Assembly: GCF_041248615.1 (NCBI RefSeq)
Contig: NZ_CP158426.1
Origin: Escherichia coli
Lineage (GTDB): Bacteria; Pseudomonadota; Gammaproteobacteria; Enterobacterales; Enterobacteriaceae
Length of the DNA: 64,000 bases
Reading direction: 5' to 3' (one strand)
The position numbers and the translations under genes are program-made. Shown one piece after another: positions 1,832 through 57,747 of the stretch (positions are counted from its first letter, which is position 1; each line of letters begins with the position of its first letter). The notes beneath the pieces were generated by a model. It searched no databases and was not told the origin of the DNA. It worked only from the letters and a program-made list of their open reading frames with translations.

Positions 1832-3679
1832 TTACCTGATTAATTGTTCCGCTTTCGATACGATTTGCGAGCTGGATCGCGCAGGCAGATCATAATTGTA
1901 AATATCTGTACGATACTGGGTACGACCATCTGCACCAACAAATGCCGTCAGGTAGTAGAGATTTACCGGAATCGACTGCCGAATATTGACGTAACGCGTA
2001 TCACCCTGCTTCAGCGCATCAGAAATACGTTTGTCATTCCAGCCTGCATCCTGCAACAGCATATTCGCCAGATCGGAAGCTTTATTCACTCGTACACAGC
2101 CTGAGCTCAATGCGCGTGTATCACGCTTGAACAGATTGTGGTTCGGCGTGTCATGCAAATAAATGGCCTCTGAACTCGGCATATTGAATTTATAGCGCCC
2201 CAGCGAGTTCCGCGGGCCTGGAGCCTGCTGGAAGCGAAACGGTAAATTTGAGGCCGTGATTGTAGACCAGTCAACCTGCCATGGGTCAATCGCTTCTCTG
2301 CTGTTCCAGCCGCGCATCACCGTATAGCCATGGCTTTCGAGATATCCCGGATCGTTGCGCACTTTCGGCAGAATATCTTTGCGTGCCAGAGTTGGTGGTA
2401 CGTTCCACGGCGGGTTTACCACTACGTTGTTAAGTGCACTACTCATCATCGGCGTTTTGCGATCGGGGCGACCGACAATGACTCGCGAATCCAGCACCTG
2501 ATTGCCGTTCTGATAGTAGACCAGCGAATAGGCTGGAATGTTAACCATAATCCCGGTAGAAAGCTCTGTTGGCAGCAAGCGCAATCGCTGGATGTTGAGT
2601 GCCAACACGCCAGCACGCTGGGCGGGCGTTACGTTTAACCAGTCACGCGTTGCCGGGCCAATAGCGCCATCTGCTCCCAATCCTTGCCATGCCTGAAAAC
2701 GTTTAACGGCTTCCACCAGTTCATTATCGTAGGCGGCACGAACGGCAGGCGCAGGTTTACTACGAGACGTCGTTTGCTTGTCCATCGGCTTAGTTTCTGC
2801 TGTTTCAACAGTAACAGCGGATGGGCTGACTACCGTGTCAGTTGGCGTGTCATCGCCAGGTAGAGTAATTTTCGGCCCCCCGTCCAACATGCCTGTACGC
2901 TGCAATATTTCGCGCAACGCCGGTACGTCGTTACTCCACTGCCCTGGGCGCAACGTTGCTTTGCCGGTCAGTTGGGGCCACGGTTTGGTGTCACTGAGTA
3001 AGGCCAGTAACGATTCATGCATCGCTGCATATTGCGGATGCTGCGGTGCCAGACCTGCAACAAACGTCGGCAATTGACCTTTATCCAGCGCCAGTTGCCA
3101 TTGGTTAATCACCGAGAGCGGCGGCGTTGAAAGCGCATAAGGTTTACTGCTATATAGCCAGCGAGTGCCTTTGACCGGAATATTTGCAATGAAATGGAGA
3201 TAGCCCATCATCGCATCAGAGAGCACGACGTCGCGTGCCATCCCGTTAACACCAGGATCGGTCAGTAACTCTACCCATTTATTAAACTGCGGCTGGAAAC
3301 CGGCAATCGCCACCTCTGCCAGCTGTTGCTGGAAGGCTTTAACAGCATCACGGTTTTCCCACATGGGTTGCATATCGCGTGCGGCATACAACAGTTGAAG
3401 CTGGTTAAGATAAACCGGCTTATAACCTGCGGGTAATTGAGATTCGATTTGCGTGCGGGCTTTTTCTGCCGCACCTTCAGGCAATGGCTGGATCCCCGCC
3501 ATTATTGCCGTGGCTTGCGCCTGCGGCAGTGCCTCGCCCTGTTCACTGACAGCCACCGGGCTGTCGCCAGGGATTACTTCAGGCTCATCGGCCTGCGCAT
3601 TGAACAGTGGAGCGAATGTTACGGCCAGGCACAAACTGATTGCCGACAGCCGACGACCACACATCATATTAAGCAACAT
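1832..3679 (-). CDS. ldtD: L,D-transpeptidase LdtD (YcbB)
   Basis: 615 aa ORF with signal peptide, recognised as YcbB; synteny. Confidence 0.85.
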
Positions 3680-3909
3680 CCCTTGCCCCCTGTTTTTATC
3701 ATACTCTGAATAGCCAGGCTGTTATTTTACGACTTGCCTGTACAACGCCAATACTCACGAAAGTATGACGAGCAAGCCTGTTACTCATCAGGCTTATCTT
3801 CAGTATATAAACGCCGATACGTTTTTACATAACCTAATGTAAAGAAGTTTAAAGAAAAGCGCGCCGTAATGTGCCACTTTTTTAGTGCAGAAACGGAGTT
3901 TTCGGAAAA

Positions 3910-48979: not shown

Positions 48980-51490
48980 ATGAGCCATCACCACACGCAC
49001 CTGGCGTACCCGTGGAACGCCCCGCTGCCGGTTATTGATCCTGAGACATTCGGCAGAGCATTACCGCAGAAGCCAACCGCATTACAACGGGCAATCCGTG
49101 ACTACCTCACCGAAGACATTCGCACTGAGGCCCGGCTGGATGAAGAAACCGTGGCCTTCCTGACAACCACGGACAAAGGTAAGCAAATTAATTCACACCT
49201 TCACCGGGACGAAGAGCGGCAGATAAGGCTGGATAAGCTGGCACGACACAGACGCGAAAATCCGCCAACGGCGGTATCGGAGGCGATAGCCGAACTTCGC
49301 ACCCTGCCCTCGTTTCTTGCCAGTGTGTTGATCCGTGATCTGGCACGACTGAACCGGAAACAGCAAAGTGCCCGCAGTGAAGGTGTAAAAAACAACAGCG
49401 CATACGTGGCCGATAATTTCGTTCGCCGTGGACTGCGTGCGCGCCTGAAACGTATTGAAAGGGTTAACGACCGCTTTGCAACGCCGGCATTCAAAACCAC
49501 CGTCGTGCGCCATCGCCTTGAAGAACTGCTCACACTGCCGCAACTCACCCGTGACGAAATCCAGCGCATCGCCACACTGACAGCCCAGGCATTCGCCGCA
49601 GAATTTGAACGCATATGTGATGAAGTTCTTGAACGGACAGGCAAGGATAATGACAGCCCGGTTATCTGGCTGCTGGCCTACCAGAAGGTGGCACGCACAG
49701 CCTTAATTCTGGGCATGGTCCCGCCATACTGGCCGGAACTCGAAATCAGGCACAACCGACGCACACCGCCGGACCCTGAACGGGTTCCGGGTGCGGTACT
49801 GCGCATCACCTGCGCGACCTGGTGGAACAACCAGTTACGCCACGTCGCCGATCTCTGGCGGGAGGAGTTACTGCGCGCCGCCGGCAGAGTGTCACGTAAA
49901 CAATCCCCCTATATCAGCCATGAGTCACTACTGGAGTTCCGCGAGAAGCGCCAGCGCACCTGTGACTTTCTCAAAAGCTGGGATATTGAAAACGAAGACG
50001 GCGAGCGCCTGAGTCTGGAGGACGTGTACTGGGCTGGCCTGGGTAATCCACGCAACCGCCGCAATGAAATGATGGTCTGCGTCAGAGGGATGGAGATGGT
50101 GGCCGAATTACGGGCTGACGTCGCATTCTTCATCACAGTAACCACCCCTTCCCGCTTTCACAGCGTGAACGAGAACGGCAGCCTGAACCCGAAATACAAC
50201 GGTGCCACAGTACGAGATGCCAGTGATTATCTGGTTTACGACTTCTTCGCAGCCGTAAGAAAAAAAATAAAAAAAGAGGGGCTGGGCTGGTACGGCGTGC
50301 GAACCGCTGAGCCACACCATGACGGCACGCCACACTGGCATATGCTGGTATTCACTTCCCCGGAGAACGCAGAGCGCATCATCGAAATTATGCGCGAAGC
50401 AGCAATTAAATCAGATCGCCACGAACTGGGGGACGATATTTCACCGCGCTTTAAATGCGAGAAGATAGACCCGGAAAAAGGCACACCGGCAAGCTATATC
50501 GCAACCTATATCGGTAAGAACCTGGACGCCAGCGCTTTCCACAACAATGATCCGAAAACCGGAAAACCTTACGTTGATGAGGAATCCGGGAAAACCATGG
50601 CGGAAACCGTGGAGAACGCCATTGCCTGGGCAAGCCTTCACCGCATCCGTCAGTTCCAGTTTTTCGGCATTCCGCCCCGCCAGGTATGGCGTGAACTCCG
50701 CCGCCTTGCAAGCCAGATGGAGCGCAACCCGGCATCACCGAAGCACCTCGATCATGACGATATTGACGCCATTATGGCTGCCGCAGATGTGGGATGTTTT
50801 GCCACCTACATCATGAAACAGGGTGGTGTGCTCATTCCGCGCAACCAGTATCTGGTCCGCACCGCATACGAAACCGCAGACGAAGCCAACGACTACGGTG
50901 AATTCCCTCAACGTATCTACGGAATCTGCGCCCCGTCGCTCGGAGAGCGGTACACCATATGCACCCATCCGGACGAGTGGAAACTGGTTAAAAAAGAAAC
51001 AACACCAGACAACCGCACGGGCGAGGGTTTTGACCTTCATGGCGACCCCGTCGCCCCTTGGACTCGTGGCAATAACTGTCCCCGGGATGAAAAAACAGAC
51101 AATCACGGACCAGAAAACAGGCAGGACCCCGGACGACTGACGCTTCCCGAAGAGAACCTGGAAAGCTGGCTGAATACGTTAAGCAGGGGCGATCGGAGAA
51201 AACTGCGTAATCAGATTAAAAATCAGCCGTCGGGCGCAAAAACCGGACAAAACGACACCACACCGGCATCTGACACCCCTGTAAGGGTGGGGATTGTCGT
51301 GCCTGCGGATACCGCGACGGACACGCAAATCGCCCGCGAACTTGATGCGCTGGGTGTGCAGTTGCCTGACGCGGCCATCATCTCCGTGCGTAACGGTGCC
51401 CGTGTGCGTCTGGATAACGGGGGAACAGCGTACTGGGATGAGTCAGCCCGTCACATCATCACAGAGCAGCCAGTGGAGGCGGGAGCATGA
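48980..51490 (+). CDS. A: replication initiation endonuclease, P2 gpA-like (rolling-circle)
   Basis: 836 aa ORF in the gene A position; HUH-type GTPHWHMLVF motif. Confidence 0.8.
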   Translation: MSHHHTHLAYPWNAPLPVIDPETFGRALPQKPTALQRAIRDYLTEDIRTEARLDEETVAFLTTTDKGKQINSHLHRDEERQIRLDKLARHRRENPPTAVSEAIAELRTLPSFLASVLIRDLARLNRKQQSARSEGVKNNSAYVADNFVRRGLRARLKRIERVNDRFATPAFKTTVVRHRLEELLTLPQLTRDEIQRIATLTAQAFAAEFERICDEVLERTGKDNDSPVIWLLAYQKVARTALILGMVPPYWPELEIRHNRRTPPDPERVPGAVLRITCATWWNNQLRHVADLWREELLRAAGRVSRKQSPYISHESLLEFREKRQRTCDFLKSWDIENEDGERLSLEDVYWAGLGNPRNRRNEMMVCVRGMEMVAELRADVAFFITVTTPSRFHSVNENGSLNPKYNGATVRDASDYLVYDFFAAVRKKIKKEGLGWYGVRTAEPHHDGTPHWHMLVFTSPENAERIIEIMREAAIKSDRHELGDDISPRFKCEKIDPEKGTPASYIATYIGKNLDASAFHNNDPKTGKPYVDEESGKTMAETVENAIAWASLHRIRQFQFFGIPPRQVWRELRRLASQMERNPASPKHLDHDDIDAIMAAADVGCFATYIMKQGGVLIPRNQYLVRTAYETADEANDYGEFPQRIYGICAPSLGERYTICTHPDEWKLVKKETTPDNRTGEGFDLHGDPVAPWTRGNNCPRDEKTDNHGPENRQDPGRLTLPEENLESWLNTLSRGDRRKLRNQIKNQPSGAKTGQNDTTPASDTPVRVGIVVPADTATDTQIARELDALGVQLPDAAIISVRNGARVRLDNGGTAYWDESARHIITEQPVEAGA

Positions 51491-51918
51491 CGCGATTTTG
51501 CTGCACCATGCAGCGCCCACAGTTTGAGGCCATCATGCGCCAGCGTATGCCGGTGCTGACACTGTTCAGGCCTGCCACAAGGCCACAACCGGGCGACGAG
51601 CTGGAAATCACGATAGTCAGCCCCGATCGCACCACGGAGACCACCATCGCCGACATACTCAACAGGCGGCCGGGCAGCGAGAGCCATAGCTGGACTGTCG
51701 TCATTCGTCCGCGCCGTTCGCCGGAGGAACCGGAGCCGTGCACGCCTGCCGGGAAAATCATGCAGAGATATCACGAAGAGCGGACACGCAGGCACAACGG
51801 CGGACTGGCCAGAACACTGAACACAGTCAATCACAAGGCCGCGCTGGCGCGAATGGTCTTTTCACCACAACGCAATTCATTCGCCAGACCAGCACAGAAC
51901 GGGAGGAAACAACAGTGA
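51487..51918 (+). CDS. hypothetical protein (143 aa), translationally coupled to gene A
   Basis: ATGA overlap with A stop; RBS ggagg upstream. Confidence 0.4.
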   Translation: MTRFCCTMQRPQFEAIMRQRMPVLTLFRPATRPQPGDELEITIVSPDRTTETTIADILNRRPGSESHSWTVVIRPRRSPEEPEPCTPAGKIMQRYHEERTRRHNGGLARTLNTVNHKAALARMVFSPQRNSFARPAQNGRKQQ

Positions 51919-52109
51919 GCAGAATATTACTTTTTCTGCTGTTTTTCGCGCCATTCGCACAATCAGCCACGCCGAACTGCGTAGCGAAAAAGAGCAACAC
52001 CGTTGTCATTGTCCAGTGTGATGACGGCACGGTAACAATCACCGACTCGAGCAAAGGAAGCGTCATTGTCTGCCGTAAAGAGAAACCCTGTCAGCGAACC
52101 GAACTTTGA
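51915..52109 (+). CDS. hypothetical small secreted Cys-containing protein (64 aa, GTG start)
   Basis: GTGA overlap with preceding stop, RBS gggagga 7 nt upstream; signal-peptide-like SRILLFLLFFAPFAQSA then 4 Cys in about 45 residues. Confidence 0.4.
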   Translation: MSRILLFLLFFAPFAQSATPNCVAKKSNTVVIVQCDDGTVTITDSSKGSVIVCRKEKPCQRTEL

Positions 52110-52120
52110 AGGAAAAATAT

Positions 52121-52435
52121 ATGAACAGGAAACAGAAGCAGGAACTGAAAGGCTTCTTACGTAAAGAAATTGCCAGGCTGGAAGATGTGGAATCTCAGTC
52201 ATCAGATATTCCATTCGGAATGGATATCAACGACGCCTGTATGCTCCAGGTATACCGCATAGCTCAGGCTGCACTACAGGCAAAACCGTCAGATGGACTG
52301 GTTAGAGCAGTACGTTTCTATGAACTGGTAAAGCGTGAGAATCCGCCAGTCGAAACCGGAGCATGGCAAGACGCTGTTGACTGGGTGCTCAAAGAGGCTT
52401 GTCAGGTTGTAAACACTGGCATCAAAGGAGACTGA
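52121..52435 (+). CDS. hypothetical protein (104 aa)
   Basis: ORF 52106-52435; start at MNRKQKQ with RBS gaagga; first gene of a coupled three-gene set. Confidence 0.45.
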   Translation: MNRKQKQELKGFLRKEIARLEDVESQSSDIPFGMDINDACMLQVYRIAQAALQAKPSDGLVRAVRFYELVKRENPPVETGAWQDAVDWVLKEACQVVNTGIKGD

Positions 52436-52436
52436 T

Positions 52437-52646
52437 ATGGCTATTGCCGCAAGTTACACCATGCATCTCTATTGTGATTGTCGCCAGTGTACAAATGGTA
52501 AATATCAAACGCCAGACTTCGGTGAATATATCGGTACGTCATGGACTGGCTGTGCAAAAGAGGCGCGTAAGGATGGCTGGCGAATAAGCAAAGACAAAAC
52601 TCGTGCTTTTGCGCCCGGGCATAAAGTTTTGAGGATTAACAAATGA
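52437..52646 (+). CDS. hypothetical small Cys-containing protein (69 aa)
   Basis: Starts 2 nt after previous stop; CDCRQC...C pattern suggests a metal-binding knuckle. Confidence 0.45.
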   Translation: MAIAASYTMHLYCDCRQCTNGKYQTPDFGEYIGTSWTGCAKEARKDGWRISKDKTRAFAPGHKVLRINK

Positions 52647-53044
52647 CCACTATAACCAAAGAGCGACTACTGACAATCAGGCAGTGGCGCGAAACATACG
52701 GACCTGGTAGCAACGTTGTACTGCCAGCCGAAGAAGCGGAAAAACTGGCACGGATTGCTTTGGCATCGCTGGAAGCAAAACCAATAGGTGCTTTCCACAT
52801 TGCAGAACAGCAGGTCGATGGCACAAGTGACTACATCAAGGATGGGGAGTACCGCTTGCTGACATCTGAAGAACAAAAGATAGCCCAACTTTTAGGCGAT
52901 GCATGGAACCTGTATTTTACATTGCCAGTTGAGCATCCAATGGGTAGAGATGAATTTTGCCGGGCAATTCATCATTGCCAAAATATGGTGTTGGCACGCC
53001 CTGCCATCAGGGCGCTGGCCAGTAAGGGGCAAGGCTATAAATAG
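52643..53044 (+). CDS. hypothetical protein (133 aa)
   Basis: ATGA overlap with previous ORF; followed by terminator. Confidence 0.45.
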   Translation: MTTITKERLLTIRQWRETYGPGSNVVLPAEEAEKLARIALASLEAKPIGAFHIAEQQVDGTSDYIKDGEYRLLTSEEQKIAQLLGDAWNLYFTLPVEHPMGRDEFCRAIHHCQNMVLARPAIRALASKGQGYK

Positions 53045-53081: not shown

Positions 53082-53170
53082 TGCACAATAGTGCACAAAT
53101 TTGCACAATTTTTTTGAACGACTTTTTGCCCTTCCGGCCCGTGTGGCGTCTGGATCCGTCGGGGATCCGT
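53082..53170. promoter_or_regulatory. phased direct repeats (operator or iteron-like)
   Basis: TGCACAA at 53082, 53092 and 53102 (exact 10-bp phasing); GGATCCGT twice at about 53151 and 53163. Confidence 0.45.
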
Positions 53171-53534
53171 GCGTGCACGAAAAAAGGCCTTTTTCTGCGC
53201 GCAGGTGACGGGGGAACAGCCCGCGTTTCAGGGGGTAAATAGCATTCCCTGAACGATGTTGCAGCGACACAACAGAATGGCTGTATTTCTCACGCTGAGC
53301 GTAAAAAAGACGTAAAAGCTTGATTTGATGGGGGTGAAAGATAAGGCCGTCAAAATCGCACTGAGGCAGCGAGAATATGTCGTCAGAGTTGCGGGGTTGC
53401 GTAAGCATCCGCCCGGCGATGATGGCTACAAGGTTGGAGATGTTGTGAAATTATCTGAAGGAATAACCAGCTTGCAGGAGAACCCGGGCAAAGTCAGAAT
53501 AGCGGCAGGCATCAACTCAAAAGAGGATAATGTC

Positions 53535-53634
53535 ATGAGCCACTTTAATGATTTATGCCAGATCAATCGTGAAGCTGAAGAAAAACGCGCTGAGGCAGCT
53601 CAAATTTTGCGGGATGAAGCGGCAAGGCTGATTG
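53535..53634 (+). pseudogene. 5' portion of a phage cargo gene interrupted by the IS21-family element
   Basis: RBS aagagga 7 nt upstream of ATG at 53535; the reading frame continues in phase with ORF at 56221-56625 once the IS is removed. Confidence 0.4.
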
Positions 53635-53829
53635 ATTGCGTATTTTCATGAAAGGAGATCACTCAATAACTTCCATCGAGATCGGGTAATAACATTTGAA
53701 CAGATCGCTGAATAACATCGATGGAGATCACTTTTGACTCATTTTGTTATTCAGTGATCTCCATCAATGTTATTGGAACTTCACAGGTGTGTTGATCTGT
53801 ATCTTTTGCCATTCCGGTAAAGGATACCT

Positions 53830-55371
53830 ATGCCAACAGTTCCAATTTCTATGAGAAAACTTAAAGAAATTCTTAGGCTTAAATACGGTGTTGGACTCAG
53901 CCATCGACAAATTGGTCGTAGTCTTGCAATCTCCCCTTCCGTTGTATCCAGATATGCTAATCGGGCGGCTCAACTTGGCATAAAGCAGTGGCCCTTACCT
54001 ACAGGATGGGATGATACAAAACTAAAACATGCGTTCCTTCAGACCCAGGTTAAGATGAAGAAGCACTCTCTGCCTGACTGGGCTACAGTACACCGGGAAC
54101 TGCGTAATAAATGCGTGACGCTGCAGCTACTCTGGGAAGAATACTGTGAGCGTAATCCAGGCGGTTTTTACAGCTATAACCATTACTGCCGGATGTACCG
54201 TGAATGGCTCAAAACCACTTCACCATCAATGCGTCAGGTACATAAAGCTGGCGAAAAACTTTTCGTTGATTACTGTGGACCTACCGTTGGCGTTACCGAC
54301 CCTGAGACCGGAGAAATAAGAACTGCTCAGGTCATCGTAGCTGTTCTCGGGGCATCAAGTTACACATGGGCAGAGGCCACCTGGTCTCAGCAGCTTGAAG
54401 ACTGGGTGATGAGTCATGTTCGCTGCTTCCAGTGGTTGGGTGGCGTTCCTGAACTTGTTGTTCCGGACAATCTGAAAAGCGCCACATCCAGGGCATGTAA
54501 GTATGATCCTGACGTTAACCCTACCTACCAGCAGATGCTTGAGCATTATAATGTCGCAGTTTTGCCTGCGCGGCCACGTAAACCGAAAGATAAAGCCAAA
54601 GCTGAAGTTGGCGTTCAGGTTGTTGAACGCTGGATCATGGCCCGAATCAGGCATGAGATCTTCTACAGCCTTGCATCGCTTAATCAGCGCATTCGGGAGT
54701 TGCTGGAAAGACTGAATAACAAAATAATGCAGAAGTTGGGTTATTCACGTGCAGAACTCTTCATCCAGCTTGATAAACCCGCACTGAAGCCTCTTCCTGA
54801 AGCCAGTTACAGTTACACCCTGGTGAAGAAAGTCAGAGTTCATGCCGATTACCACGTGGAAATCGACAAACATTACTACTCGGTTCCATGTTCGCTGTTA
54901 GGCCAGCAACTGGAAGCATGGATCTCCGGAGAACTGGTAAGACTCTTCAATCAGGGGCAGGAGGTTGCTGTGCACCCGCGCAAGCGTACTTATGGCTACA
55001 GTACCCGCAACGAGCACATGCCTGAAGCTCATCGACAGCATGCCACCTGGACGCCAGAGCGTCTTCTGGAATGGGCGGGGCACATAGGCAGTGAAACTCA
55101 TAGTTATGTGCTTCATATACTGAACTCTCGTCCACATCCGGAACAAAGCTATCGCTTCTGCCTTGGACTCCTGAACCTTCATAAAAAATACAGTAAAGCC
55201 AGACTTAATGCAGCATGTGCAAGAGCTCTGAAAACAAAGGTATGGCGTCTGTCAGGTATTAAATCGATCCTGGAAAAAGGTCTGGATAAACAACCTGTTC
55301 AGGATCCAAAACCAGATCTGTTATCCACGATGGAACACGAAAACGTACGCGGCAGTGAGTATTACCACTGA
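53830..55371 (+). CDS. istA: IS21-family transposase IstA
   Basis: 513 aa ORF; N-terminal HTH (LSHRQIGRSLAISPSVVSRY) and integrase-like core. Confidence 0.85.
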   Translation: MPTVPISMRKLKEILRLKYGVGLSHRQIGRSLAISPSVVSRYANRAAQLGIKQWPLPTGWDDTKLKHAFLQTQVKMKKHSLPDWATVHRELRNKCVTLQLLWEEYCERNPGGFYSYNHYCRMYREWLKTTSPSMRQVHKAGEKLFVDYCGPTVGVTDPETGEIRTAQVIVAVLGASSYTWAEATWSQQLEDWVMSHVRCFQWLGGVPELVVPDNLKSATSRACKYDPDVNPTYQQMLEHYNVAVLPARPRKPKDKAKAEVGVQVVERWIMARIRHEIFYSLASLNQRIRELLERLNNKIMQKLGYSRAELFIQLDKPALKPLPEASYSYTLVKKVRVHADYHVEIDKHYYSVPCSLLGQQLEAWISGELVRLFNQGQEVAVHPRKRTYGYSTRNEHMPEAHRQHATWTPERLLEWAGHIGSETHSYVLHILNSRPHPEQSYRFCLGLLNLHKKYSKARLNAACARALKTKVWRLSGIKSILEKGLDKQPVQDPKPDLLSTMEHENVRGSEYYH

Positions 55372-55382
55372 TACGGGATCCA

Positions 55383-56132
55383 ATGATGAATCATCTTTAC
55401 GAACAACTGACCGCACTTAAACTCACCGGCTTCCGTGATGCGCTTAAAAAGCAACTTGCTCAGCCGGGCACATACCAGGAGCTGGGCTTCGAAGAACGCC
55501 TGTCATTACTGACAGCAGAAGAACTAACCTGCCGTGAAAACAGGAAGGCAGAGCGTCTGATCAAACATGCACGGTTCAGACTTAATGCTGAGTTATCAAA
55601 GCTGGATTATCGTAACAATAGAGGGCTGGACAGGGCCCTCATCCGTTCACTCAGTCAGGGAAACTGGTTAACCCTGAAACAAAATATTTTACTGACCGGG
55701 GCCACCGGCAGCGGTAAAACGTTCCTGGCATGTGCACTTGGTCATAATGCCTGCCGACAGGGATACAAGGTCTACTATTATCGCCTTAAAGCGCTGATGG
55801 AACAGTGCTATCAGGGGCATGCTGATGGAAGATACAGCAAACTTTTGACCAGGCTGAATAATAGCGATCTGCTGCTTCTGGATGACTGGGGGCTGGAACC
55901 TCTCTCATCAGAACAGCGTAGCGACCTGCTGGAAATAGTGGATCTGATGTACCAACGAGGCTCAATCATCGTAGTGAGCCAGTTGCCGGTGGAAAACTGG
56001 TACAAAATGATCGGAGACTCCACACATGCGGATGCCATCCTAGATCGACTGGTTCATGGCAGTATCAAGATCGAACTTAAAGGAGAATCAATGCGGAAAA
56101 TACAATCTCCGTTGACCGAAGGAGATCAGTGA
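55383..56132 (+). CDS. istB: IS21-family helper ATPase IstB
   Basis: 249 aa ORF with Walker A GATGSGKT and Walker B LLLLDDWG. Confidence 0.85.
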   Translation: MMNHLYEQLTALKLTGFRDALKKQLAQPGTYQELGFEERLSLLTAEELTCRENRKAERLIKHARFRLNAELSKLDYRNNRGLDRALIRSLSQGNWLTLKQNILLTGATGSGKTFLACALGHNACRQGYKVYYYRLKALMEQCYQGHADGRYSKLLTRLNNSDLLLLDDWGLEPLSSEQRSDLLEIVDLMYQRGSIIVVSQLPVENWYKMIGDSTHADAILDRLVHGSIKIELKGESMRKIQSPLTEGDQ

Positions 56133-56220
56133 AGGTAATTTAAAAACGGTTCTGTGAAAGTGACACGAACCGATCTCCATCGATGTTACTCACCGATCTC
56201 CTTCACGGTAATACGCAATT

Positions 56221-56625
56221 GATTTCTATGAAGAATGGCTGGGGCTTCCATCCATGTACTGGGAAGACGATGATGGCGACCTGCACCGCTACGTGGAGAC
56301 AGGCTTGCCATGTAAGACAGCGGCGGATTTTAGTCCTCTTTCAGTCCACAATATCGCATCTGCACCAGACAATATTTTCCGCATGGCCGTGCGAACCTGG
56401 GTTAAGTCATCTGACAGCAGCTACCCGGTAAGCGTGGTTATTGCACTTGAATTATATTCAGTAGATGCGGAACGGGTGTCTCTGAGAGTCCGGGTGGAAG
56501 ACGATATTTCTGTTCGCGTATTTATCAATAAACCCAGCGAAGAAGCCTGGGGCGATGTTGTTATGCACATGAAAAAGCACATCGCTAATCACCTGAAAAA
56601 GCGAGCGCCATCAGCACTTCGTTAA
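56221..56625 (+). pseudogene. 3' portion of the IS-interrupted phage cargo gene
   Basis: Open frame from the IS right junction (DFYEEWLGLPSMYWEDDDGDLHRY...) to stop at 56625, in phase with the upstream fragment. Confidence 0.4.
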
Positions 56626-56691: not shown

Positions 56692-57747
56692 TCAGGATAT
56701 GGGCTGGGTGTCTAACAGTGCGTAAGGGTTAAAACGGATCACCTCTTCGCCCAGCCAGTCGTTGACGTGTTTCATTGCTTCCATGACGGGCATCAGTTCG
56801 TTAATGGCAAACACACGGGCTGCCTTCTCCACATCCCCGAATGACCCCTTCTCACCCGGCATGGCCCCCATCAGCTGCGGCGGTACACGGTGCACGGACA
56901 GCACATCATCACGCGATGCAGCCTTGACGTTCATGAACTCATCCTTTGCGGTGATTTGCTGAAACGGCAAAATCTGTACGCCATCCTTACCACCTCCCGC
57001 CGCGTGGATGAGCAGATTTTTAAACGCCCCGCCACCACGCGCGCTTTGCAGTGTTTCCCGCAGTTTTTCCATGCTTTCACGGTCAACCTGCGCCGCACCG
57101 ATGTAGACAATACAGCCCGCGTGTGAGCCGTTATCGTAGTAGAGCTTGCGGAAGATATCGGCGGAATGTGACAGGCTGGCAGACAGCAGGCCGCCCAGGT
57201 AATCCGGCATCCCGTAAATCTCCTGGTTGATATCAGGATTCATCAGGTGGCATATCGTCCCCTCACGAAAGCGGTACTCTTCCTGTCCTTCCTGTATATA
57301 CCACCATGATTTCATATCGCTGCCACGTCGCATGTATTTCGCCAGCGCCCGGCGCAGGGCCAGCGGTTCGCCAAGCATGTTGCGCCGCAGCTCAAGACAG
57401 GCATTACCGAACACAAACCAGTCCATCGCCACCCCGGCGAACTCCTGGCGGGACAGCAGAGGATGTGGAATATAGCAGCCCAGCAGCACATTACGTTTGA
57501 AGCTGAGCGCCGACTGGTGCCAGGACGTCTGGCGGGCAGCCCGTGCCAGTCCGTACCAGTCAACGGGCGTTTCAAACCACCGCCCGTTGTCGGCGCAGTA
57601 CATGCTGTCCAGCAGGTCGGCCCCTGACAGCCGGTAAGGTCCTTCAAACGTGAAGGCACTCAGTGTCGGGTCGCTTCGCAGGGAATCCGCAAGGCTGCCC
57701 TGCGCTGCGCGGGCGTTCGTACGTCGTTGTTTATTTTTTCTGCTCAT
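56692..57747 (-). CDS. Q: phage portal protein, P2 gpQ-like
   Basis: 351 aa ORF, leftward, stop overlapping the downstream terminase gene; position and size match P2 Q. Confidence 0.8.
   Translation of the reverse strand: MSRKNKQRRTNARAAQGSLADSLRSDPTLSAFTFEGPYRLSGADLLDSMYCADNGRWFETPVDWYGLARAARQTSWHQSALSFKRNVLLGCYIPHPLLSRQEFAGVAMDWFVFGNACLELRRNMLGEPLALRRALAKYMRRGSDMKSWWYIQEGQEEYRFREGTICHLMNPDINQEIYGMPDYLGGLLSASLSHSADIFRKLYYDNGSHAGCIVYIGAAQVDRESMEKLRETLQSARGGGAFKNLLIHAAGGGKDGVQILPFQQITAKDEFMNVKAASRDDVLSVHRVPPQLMGAMPGEKGSFGDVEKAARVFAINELMPVMEAMKHVNDWLGEEVIRFNPYALLDTQPIS

Follow-up and report, generated by a model that had tools for sequence, protein, structure and literature searches.

A small four-cysteine gene in a P2-like prophage

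The 64,000-nucleotide stretch of Escherichia coli DNA analysed here (contig NZ_CP158426.1; hereafter the window) carries a P2-like prophage, and we focused on a 64-codon gene that lies in the gpA-portal hotspot of this prophage. An earlier note, written from the window sequence alone, had described the frame as a small secreted peptide with four cysteines. Both the gene and the family it belongs to are real and uncharacterised, and a specialist would find them unsurprising until a phenotype is found. The features of the gene, all on the plus strand, are as follows.

51901..51907, plus strand: Shine-Dalgarno (SD) sequence GGGAGGA, 8 nt 5' of the start and inside the 3' end of the upstream open reading frame (ORF)
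51915..52109, plus strand: coding sequence of 64 codons with a GTG start and TGA at 52107-52109; product MSRILLFLLFFAPFAQSATPNCVAKKSNTVVIVQCDDGTVTITDSSKGSVIVCRKEKPCQRTEL
51915..51965, plus strand: predicted Sec signal peptide, residues 1-17 (rule-based analysis)
51966..52106, plus strand: mature domain of 47 residues, a five-strand antiparallel beta-meander in the AlphaFold model
51978..52019, plus strand: first cysteine pair, C22 (51978-51980) and C35 (52017-52019), placed by the strand register of the model
52014..52034, plus strand: most conserved motif, Q-C-D-D-G-T-V (residues 34-40), spanning the end of strand 2, a tight turn and the start of strand 3
52071..52091, plus strand: second cysteine pair, C53 (52071-52073) and C59 (52089-52091), placed by alignment and strand register

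The GTG start (51915-51917) shares bases with the TGA (51916-51918) of the upstream ORF of 143 amino acids (aa; orf143), in the overlap GTGA. The duplex of the SD with the anti-SD sequence has an energy of -10.3 kcal/mol, and equal or better pairing is found at just 0.3% of the 6158 ATG, GTG and TTG triplets in the window. The two elements named in the earlier note are thus present: the ribosome-binding site is strong, and the GTG start overlaps the stop of the gene before it. The accompanying remark that the ORF is easily missed is wrong: RefSeq/PGAP reports it with exact coordinates as WP_000086827.1, 'hypothetical protein', and the same protein is in PHROGs and in UniProt (A0A0D8WND8). It is recorded on at least 1000 contigs, and the gene is rare in E. 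coli, occurring in 25 of 5426 complete genomes, every time on the chromosome. A longer form of 123 aa from the in-frame GTG at 51738, annotated once (STG54097.1), was rejected because it overlaps orf143 in another frame, has no SD, and carries an extension absent from all relatives.

The sense frame is conserved

The sequence pattern alone is weak evidence for a gene, because 2 of the 930 window frames of 50-120 aa pass a crude filter for a signal-peptide-like start and at least four cysteines; the other one looks spurious. Conservation settles the question in favour of a real gene. The comparison of synonymous and nonsynonymous changes in related prophages, proposed as a check in the earlier note, was carried out, and the frame is kept and under purifying selection. 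Among three diverged E. coli variants, the ratio of nonsynonymous to synonymous substitution rates (dN/dS) is 0.18-0.29 in the sense frame, with no stops, and separates into 0.16-0.26 for the mature part versus about 1 for the signal peptide. In an independent Klebsiella clade of seven sequences, two of them virulent phages and five IMG/VR viral contigs, dN/dS is 0.03-0.3 and most changes fall at third positions.

A different view of the locus comes from E. coli UMNF18 (locus L007, 3959..4153), where PGAP called an antisense ORF, WP_136746568.1, and not the sense gene of a 66-aa variant. If that call were right, the small frame would be a chance ORF and the antisense ORF the true feature; the window does hold open antisense frames of 79 and 83 aa. 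We give this virtually no credence. The open antisense frame has dN/dS of 0.8-1.1, and a second antisense frame has low dN/dS but contains stops and mirrors the third positions of the sense frame. The sense product, by comparison, can be followed in unrelated phages down to identities of about 30%, always with its four cysteines, and it is modelled with a predicted local distance difference test score (pLDDT) of 95. The conservation data effectively refute an antisense gene. WP_136746568.1 is probably a mis-call, because its frame is without purifying selection, and the small gene can be mis-called, as seen in UMNF18.

Predicted export to the periplasm

The N-terminus, MSRILLFLLFFAPFAQS/ATPNC, has an n-region with R3, a 12-residue uncharged h-region (ILLFLLFFAPFA) and a c-region AQS. 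Signal peptidase I is predicted to cut after S17, or possibly after A18. The earlier note had recognised a signal-peptide-like N-terminus ending in AQSA; its Sec-type layout stands, and the cut is better placed at A-Q-S/A, which fits the -3/-1 rule better than AQSA/T. Close variants have AHS/T and VHS/A at the equivalent position.

Signal peptides were judged by simple rules (an n-region with positive charge, an uncharged hydrophobic h-region some 7-15 residues long, and, at -3 and -1, residues that are small or neutral). By these rules the n/h/c layout and the -3/-1 site are present in all 41 full-length family members, and the window protein classifies with Sec/signal peptidase I secretory proteins. 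None of the 41 has a lipobox ([LVI][ASTVI][GAS]C with Cys at +1), and the first cysteine lies at +4 to +17 past the predicted cut. These features strongly support a Sec-type, exported product without a lipid anchor. Receptor masking of the Cor or Llp kind, one of the roles raised in the earlier note, is not supported here, as those proteins are lipoproteins and the lipobox count in this family is 0/41.

Cleavage itself could be doubted. If the N-terminal hydrophobic segment stayed uncleaved, it would hold the protein at the inner membrane while the four-cysteine domain faced the periplasm, an arrangement compatible with any function. Hydrophobic segments of about 20 residues are present in several relatives (Desertfox gp87, P0007, P0010 and P0020), and T4 RI was long taken for such a case (PMC8385771). 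In the window protein, however, the uncharged core is just 12 residues long and includes a proline, too short for a stable transmembrane helix, and a -3/-1 site follows the hydrophobic segment in all members. We consider a permanent anchor improbable.

The mature domain

The mature part comprises 46-47 residues with cysteines at residues 22, 35, 53 and 59, in agreement with the earlier description of roughly 45 residues and four cysteines. AlphaFold2, run on the mature domain with a 38-sequence alignment, returned a model with mean pLDDT of 95.3 and a predicted template modelling score (pTM) of 0.71. Its strands cover mature residues 5-10, 13-18, 23-27, 32-36 and 43-46, and a full-length model is concordant. 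The strand register suggests two disulfides. C22 and C35 would be cross-strand partners at the open end of hairpin 1, and their spacing across the family is 12-14 residues. C53 and C59 would close the loop R-K-E-K-P between strands 4 and 5, a loop that varies in the family from 5 to 13 residues.

The alignment of 38 distinct relatives shows no variation at C22, C35, G38, C53 or C59; conservation reaches at least 90% at Q34 and at least 70% at D37, T39 and V40. Foldseek against the PDB gave no match with an E-value below 0.24, and against BFVD its top match was only the family's own member from Erwinia. A PDB sequence search with the family profile was likewise at chance level (best E-value 0.91).

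A rare family shared by temperate and virulent phages

The family consensus is a signal peptide followed by C-x12/13-[Q]C-x-[DN]-G-T-V-T...C-x5-13-C, in proteins of 57-109 aa in total, and the window protein fits it. A profile built from six members was searched against 1.84 billion representative proteins and gave 42 matches at an E-value of 1e-3 or less, of which about 36 (57-109 aa; counted as clusters at 50% identity) are true. The long matches were to WD40 and other repeat proteins that contain DGTV-like strands; on inspection they were dismissed as spurious. A second search, of a 5.8-billion-protein index, yielded 31 clusters, every one named 'hypothetical protein'; several of these are on contigs of 190-295 kb, typical of jumbo phages. 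By tblastn against 50,697 phage records, distant relatives were found in Klebsiella Webervirus phages and in Erwinia jumbo phages, the latter being Agricanvirus and the pEa_SNUABM_37 type. The family is carried by P2-like and lambdoid prophages, by virulent Webervirus phages and by Agricanvirus jumbo phages.

Over the mature domain, the window protein matches three PHROGs families, phrog_20764 (4e-10), phrog_11462 (1e-8) and phrog_8391 (4e-3). By sequence it is a direct member of these families, which are without a name or function; membership shows no more than that phage relatives had been clustered before. No match for the small protein was found in Pfam, NCBIfam or PADLOC (the last scanned at E-values up to 0.1), and a Pfam scan of 38 relatives gave chance-level matches only. 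Literature searches by accession and PHROG number returned no papers, and a keyword search returned analogues only. Together, the sequence comparisons strongly support a conserved four-cysteine family that is phage-restricted, rare and unnamed.

The earlier note treated the product as a peptide carried by prophages. It is not prophage-specific, as the relatives in virulent Klebsiella Webervirus and Erwinia jumbo phages make clear. A function confined to the lysogen is unlikely for the same reason, and a role in lytic growth is suggested by the presence of the family in strictly virulent phages. The 70-aa Klebsiella form is near-identical in virulent Webervirus phages and in several viral contigs of IMG/VR, of which at least one is lambdoid-like. 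This near-identity points to recent exchange and to usefulness in lytic growth.

Position in the hotspot and probable expression

The small gene is bounded and flanked by the following features.

48980..51490, plus strand: gpA replication endonuclease, 836 aa (Pfam Phage_GPA, 1.3e-103; RefSeq 'replication endonuclease'), left border of the hotspot
51487..51918, plus strand: orf143, 143 aa (phrog_14984), of backbone-like high guanine-plus-cytosine (GC) content, overlapping the end of gpA by ATGA
51919..52106, plus strand: exchangeable cassette, delimited by alignment with the P2-like prophage of E. coli E7-1N7
52121..53044, plus strand: three co-oriented genes of 104, 69 and 133 aa, 3' of the small gene (region 52106..53044)
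53091..53116, plus strand: terminator-like hairpin with a T-run, the first on this strand after gpA (consensus scan only)
56692..57747, minus strand: portal gene gpQ (Pfam Phage_portal; RefSeq annotation of the equivalent locus), right border of the hotspot

P2 Tin and Old are proteins of the cytoplasm that the lysogen expresses. The small gene resembles tin and old in its position between replication gene A and the portal gene; it differs in that it encodes an apparently exported mini-protein, apparently belongs to an early operon, and has no PADLOC match. More generally, the P2 gpA-portal interval is a hotspot of variable, often anti-phage cargo, where P2 carries tin and old (PMC9122126); variable anti-phage cargo in this region is also described in 10.64898/2026.02.27.708500. 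GC content, 0.57-0.62 over gpA and orf143, drops to about 0.48 at 51.9 kb and stays low until the portal gene, which makes the small gene the first of the low-GC cargo. The content of the slot differs in E7-1N7, UMNF18 and SWHEFF_58. By position, by composition shift and by content that differs among related prophages, the small gene is cargo of the P2 gpA-portal hotspot.

Stop/start overlaps (ATGA and GTGA) link gpA, orf143 and the small gene in series, and a crude scan found no sigma-70-like site on the plus strand between gpA and the small gene. Because of these overlaps, the lack of a promoter-like site, and a first terminator-like site only at 53.1 kb, the arrangement suggests that the small gene is read as an extension of the early gpA-containing replication operon. 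The transcription unit has its probable end at the hairpin at 53091..53116. If it is read with the early operon, the product would be expected after infection or induction, and not in a quiescent lysogen.

This bears on whether the lysogen could make the product as a lysogenic-conversion factor or bacteriocin-like peptide, targeting other cells or the surface of the host. Such a role would suit an exported peptide that is small, stabilised by cysteines and encoded in an accessory hotspot of a prophage. Against it, a Sec leader reaches the periplasm only and is not a double-glycine leader; there is no conserved neighbour gene in the loci examined; there is no promoter-like site 5' of the gene, which appears translationally coupled to an early lytic operon; and the family is present in strictly virulent phages and lacks a lipobox for surface anchoring. 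Class II microcins need a double-glycine leader together with adjacent immunity and ABC-exporter genes; the small gene has a Sec-type leader, and none of its flanking gene products that were scanned matches an exporter or immunity family. The bacteriocin-like function floated in the earlier note is accordingly unlikely: besides the leader type and the lack of a conserved neighbour, no flanking exporter or immunity match was found with Pfam, PHROGs or PADLOC. We regard production by the lysogen for such ends as very improbable.

An exchangeable cassette for small envelope-directed genes

In the P2-like prophage of E. coli E7-1N7, gpA and orf143 are shared with the window (94.5% identity), as is the SD, and the next frame starts in an ATGA overlap. 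Homology to the window extends past the SD and the start codon, is lost over the next few codons, and is back at the stop codon (TGAAGGAAAAA.ATATGAACAGG). Because homology breaks and resumes at its limits, 51919..52106 is a gene-sized exchangeable cassette, and the SD is a property of the phage backbone, not of the cassette. The E7-1N7 occupant (locus L033, 3429..3596) is an unrelated 55-aa ORF with two hydrophobic, transmembrane-like segments, MSEIFLAVKFALIFTGAWLLLVTFMAWDNPLHHFTPGFIVRIFVTTVVIVIWLLS. PHROGs gave no match to this 55-aa protein, and no functional names for the neighbours of relatives. By sequence, both known occupants of the slot are predicted to be small envelope-directed proteins, and such genes appear to be swapped here as cassettes bounded by start and stop codons.

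In the UMNF18 and SWHEFF_58 variants, the family gene has its own ATG and SD and lies 3' of ParM/ParR-like genes. These plasmid segregation genes of the ParM/ParR type, at 2634..3909 of loci L007 (UMNF18) and L008 (SWHEFF_58), between gpA and the family gene, are an unusual cargo for a P2-like prophage. In UMNF18, the 75-nt spacer between the ParR-like gene and the family gene holds a 10-bp perfect inverted repeat, AAGGCATGAC...GTCATGCCTT (L007, 3910..3960), with no T-run after it.

In lambdoid prophages, relatives are located in the early-left accessory region near recombination genes, SSB, and DUF550, DUF551 and Ea22-like genes. At two lambdoid loci, L022 and L025, the family gene is directly 3' of a small two-transmembrane ORF and another signal-peptide ORF, an arrangement that looks like a small cluster of envelope-directed genes. 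Three ORFs come before the family gene there (L022, 2996..3906; L025, 3086..3983), namely that for a signal-peptide protein of 138-142 aa (phrog_8805), that for a 97-99-aa protein (phrog_1258), and the two-transmembrane ORF. Two database proteins, P0033 and P0044, resemble frameshift fusions of the transmembrane ORF and the family gene. In the Webervirus and jumbo phages, relatives are found among small co-oriented early-type genes, and two more metagenomic contexts are likewise phage-like. The family gene behaves as a single-gene module, since no neighbour is conserved across the family.

These contexts bear on a possible part in lysis timing, in which the protein would bind the periplasmic domain of a holin or spanin, or sense superinfection, in the manner of the T4 antiholin RI. 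RI, too, is a small phage protein of the periplasm whose signal peptide is cleavable (PMC8385771), so the two are alike in size, signal peptide and compartment, and the family is found in lytic phages. There is, however, no sequence or fold similarity to RI. In every locus examined the gene is far from and unlinked to lysis genes, lying beside replication, recombination or ea-type genes, and the carrier phages have very different lysis systems. We judge a function in lysis timing to be a long shot.

The protein could also aid its own phage's infection by neutralising a host function in the envelope, such as a membrane- or periplasm-based anti-phage system, a periplasmic nuclease or protease, or an envelope stress sensor. 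Its carriage by virulent and jumbo phages in early gene clusters would agree with such counter-defence or host takeover, as would the predicted export, the small, stable, binder-like fold, and the location in the lambdoid exo-xis/ea accessory region beside DUF550, DUF551 and Ea22-like genes. On the other side, it has no known target and no similarity to described anti-defence proteins, and a broadly useful factor might be commoner than a family of about 36 clusters in 1.84 billion proteins. This explanation is unlikely, if better grounded than lysis timing.

A candidate periplasmic binder of the infected cell

T5 Llp and Cor of T1, phi80 and N15 are receptor-blocking lipoproteins, Llp being made early by a virulent phage. 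Like the window protein they are small exported phage proteins, and they act at the envelope against further infection; they differ in having a lipobox with an acylated Cys at +1, whereas our family has no lipobox and no sequence similarity to them. T4 Sp (spackle, gp61.3) is a helical protein of about 97 aa with a cleavable signal peptide, produced early and active in superinfection exclusion from the periplasm. As a small phage protein with a signal peptide in the periplasm of the infected cell, it offers the best functional analogy. The difference is in size and fold, about 97 aa and helical for Sp versus a mature part of about 47 aa that is all-beta with two predicted disulfides. Sp is covered by a review (PMC7650644). 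No sequence or fold similarity was found between the family and T4 Sp, T4 RI, or the periplasmic inhibitors Ivy, PliC and MliC. The small protein would work most like Sp, RI, Cor and Llp, and by sequence it is a member of none of these groups.

Taken as a whole, the best explanation is a small exported periplasmic four-cysteine protein of the early lytic phase that binds an envelope target, a proposal that is plausible while somewhat short of probable. The protein would be made after infection or induction, from the early gpA-containing operon. DsbA forms disulfides in the E. coli periplasm, and it would make the two predicted here. The resulting disulfide-stabilised, soluble mini-protein would then bind a target in the envelope or periplasm of the infected cell. 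The QCxDGTVT hairpin may serve as scaffold, with specificity residing in the strand-1 turn, the hairpin-3 loop, and the variable loop closed by cysteines. Its most likely purpose would be to keep other phages out, via a block of DNA entry or of the action of incoming virions.

That last step, in which a soluble binder in the periplasm would shield the infected cell against attack by further phages much as T4 Sp does, is put forward only tentatively. Superinfection exclusion, which the earlier note had also listed, is a guess, and a reasonable one, because the product is predicted to be exported, the family is present in virulent and temperate phages, the gene is at the edge of the P2 exclusion hotspot, and small membrane proteins are allelic or adjacent to it. 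That a small membrane protein is paired with a small periplasmic one, in the E7-1N7 slot and at L022 and L025, recalls Imm and Sp of T4. Going further, the QCxDGTVT mini-proteins might be a new class of phage periplasmic effector, a beta-meander scaffold stapled by disulfides and bearing hypervariable loops, which temperate, virulent and jumbo phages of Enterobacterales share and which binds an envelope component to exclude competitors or to disarm an envelope-based host defence, borne in P2-like phages by cassettes that are swapped with equivalent membrane proteins; this we think possible and still rather doubtful.

Several points weigh against the proposal. No experiment or annotation ties any family member to a function, and the fold yields no functional lead because fold searches return generic beta-sheet fragments only. 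The disulfide connectivity was read from the secondary-structure register and not from coordinates. The signal peptide was assessed by simple rules, and the relatives with hydrophobic stretches of about 20 residues may have uncleaved anchors. The parallel with T4 Imm and Sp is an analogy only. The promoter scan was crude, and a weak internal promoter with expression in the lysogen could exist. Finally, the family has no neighbour gene that is kept throughout.

It is already known that the gene is annotated as hypothetical and that its relatives are clustered in PHROGs, and phage-encoded periplasmic accessory proteins are a known kind. Should no phenotype emerge, it would stay an ordinary small accessory gene. 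Only a handful of phage proteins are known to act in the periplasm (T4 Sp, RI, Cor, Llp), and each has revealed a distinct step in entry or lysis control. A probably very stable binder of 47 residues that recurs in P2-like, lambdoid, T1-like and jumbo phages would be an easy experimental handle and, if active, would point to an envelope target important to many phages. Small envelope-directed genes that go unflagged by defence-finding pipelines can thus reside at the left edge of the P2 gpA-portal hotspot.

Other cargo of the hotspot

The three genes 3' of the small gene are probably on the same transcript. They share 89-97% identity with ea22/exo-xis-region genes found in lambdoid, Stx, phiV10-like and P1-like phages (104 aa, phrog_26213/660; 69 aa, phrog_926; 133 aa, phrog_13916/60). 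By sequence they represent a block of lambdoid early accessory genes apparently captured by the P2 hotspot. A homologue of the 69-aa Cys-rich protein adjoins the family gene in a Klebsiella prophage (L028, 3771..3983). PADLOC gave chance-level matches only for the neighbour gene products, and no Rfam family was found at 51.0-53.8 kb.

Farther along, the hotspot cargo includes an IS21-family element at 53638..56217, with IstA at 53830..55371 (rve, Mu-transposase C) and IstB at 55383..56132. Comparison of the junction with strain SCU-115 reveals a 7-bp overlap, consistent with target duplication. The insertion splits a 236-aa gene (phrog_5091, no Pfam match) into fragments at 53325..53651 and 56254..56625.

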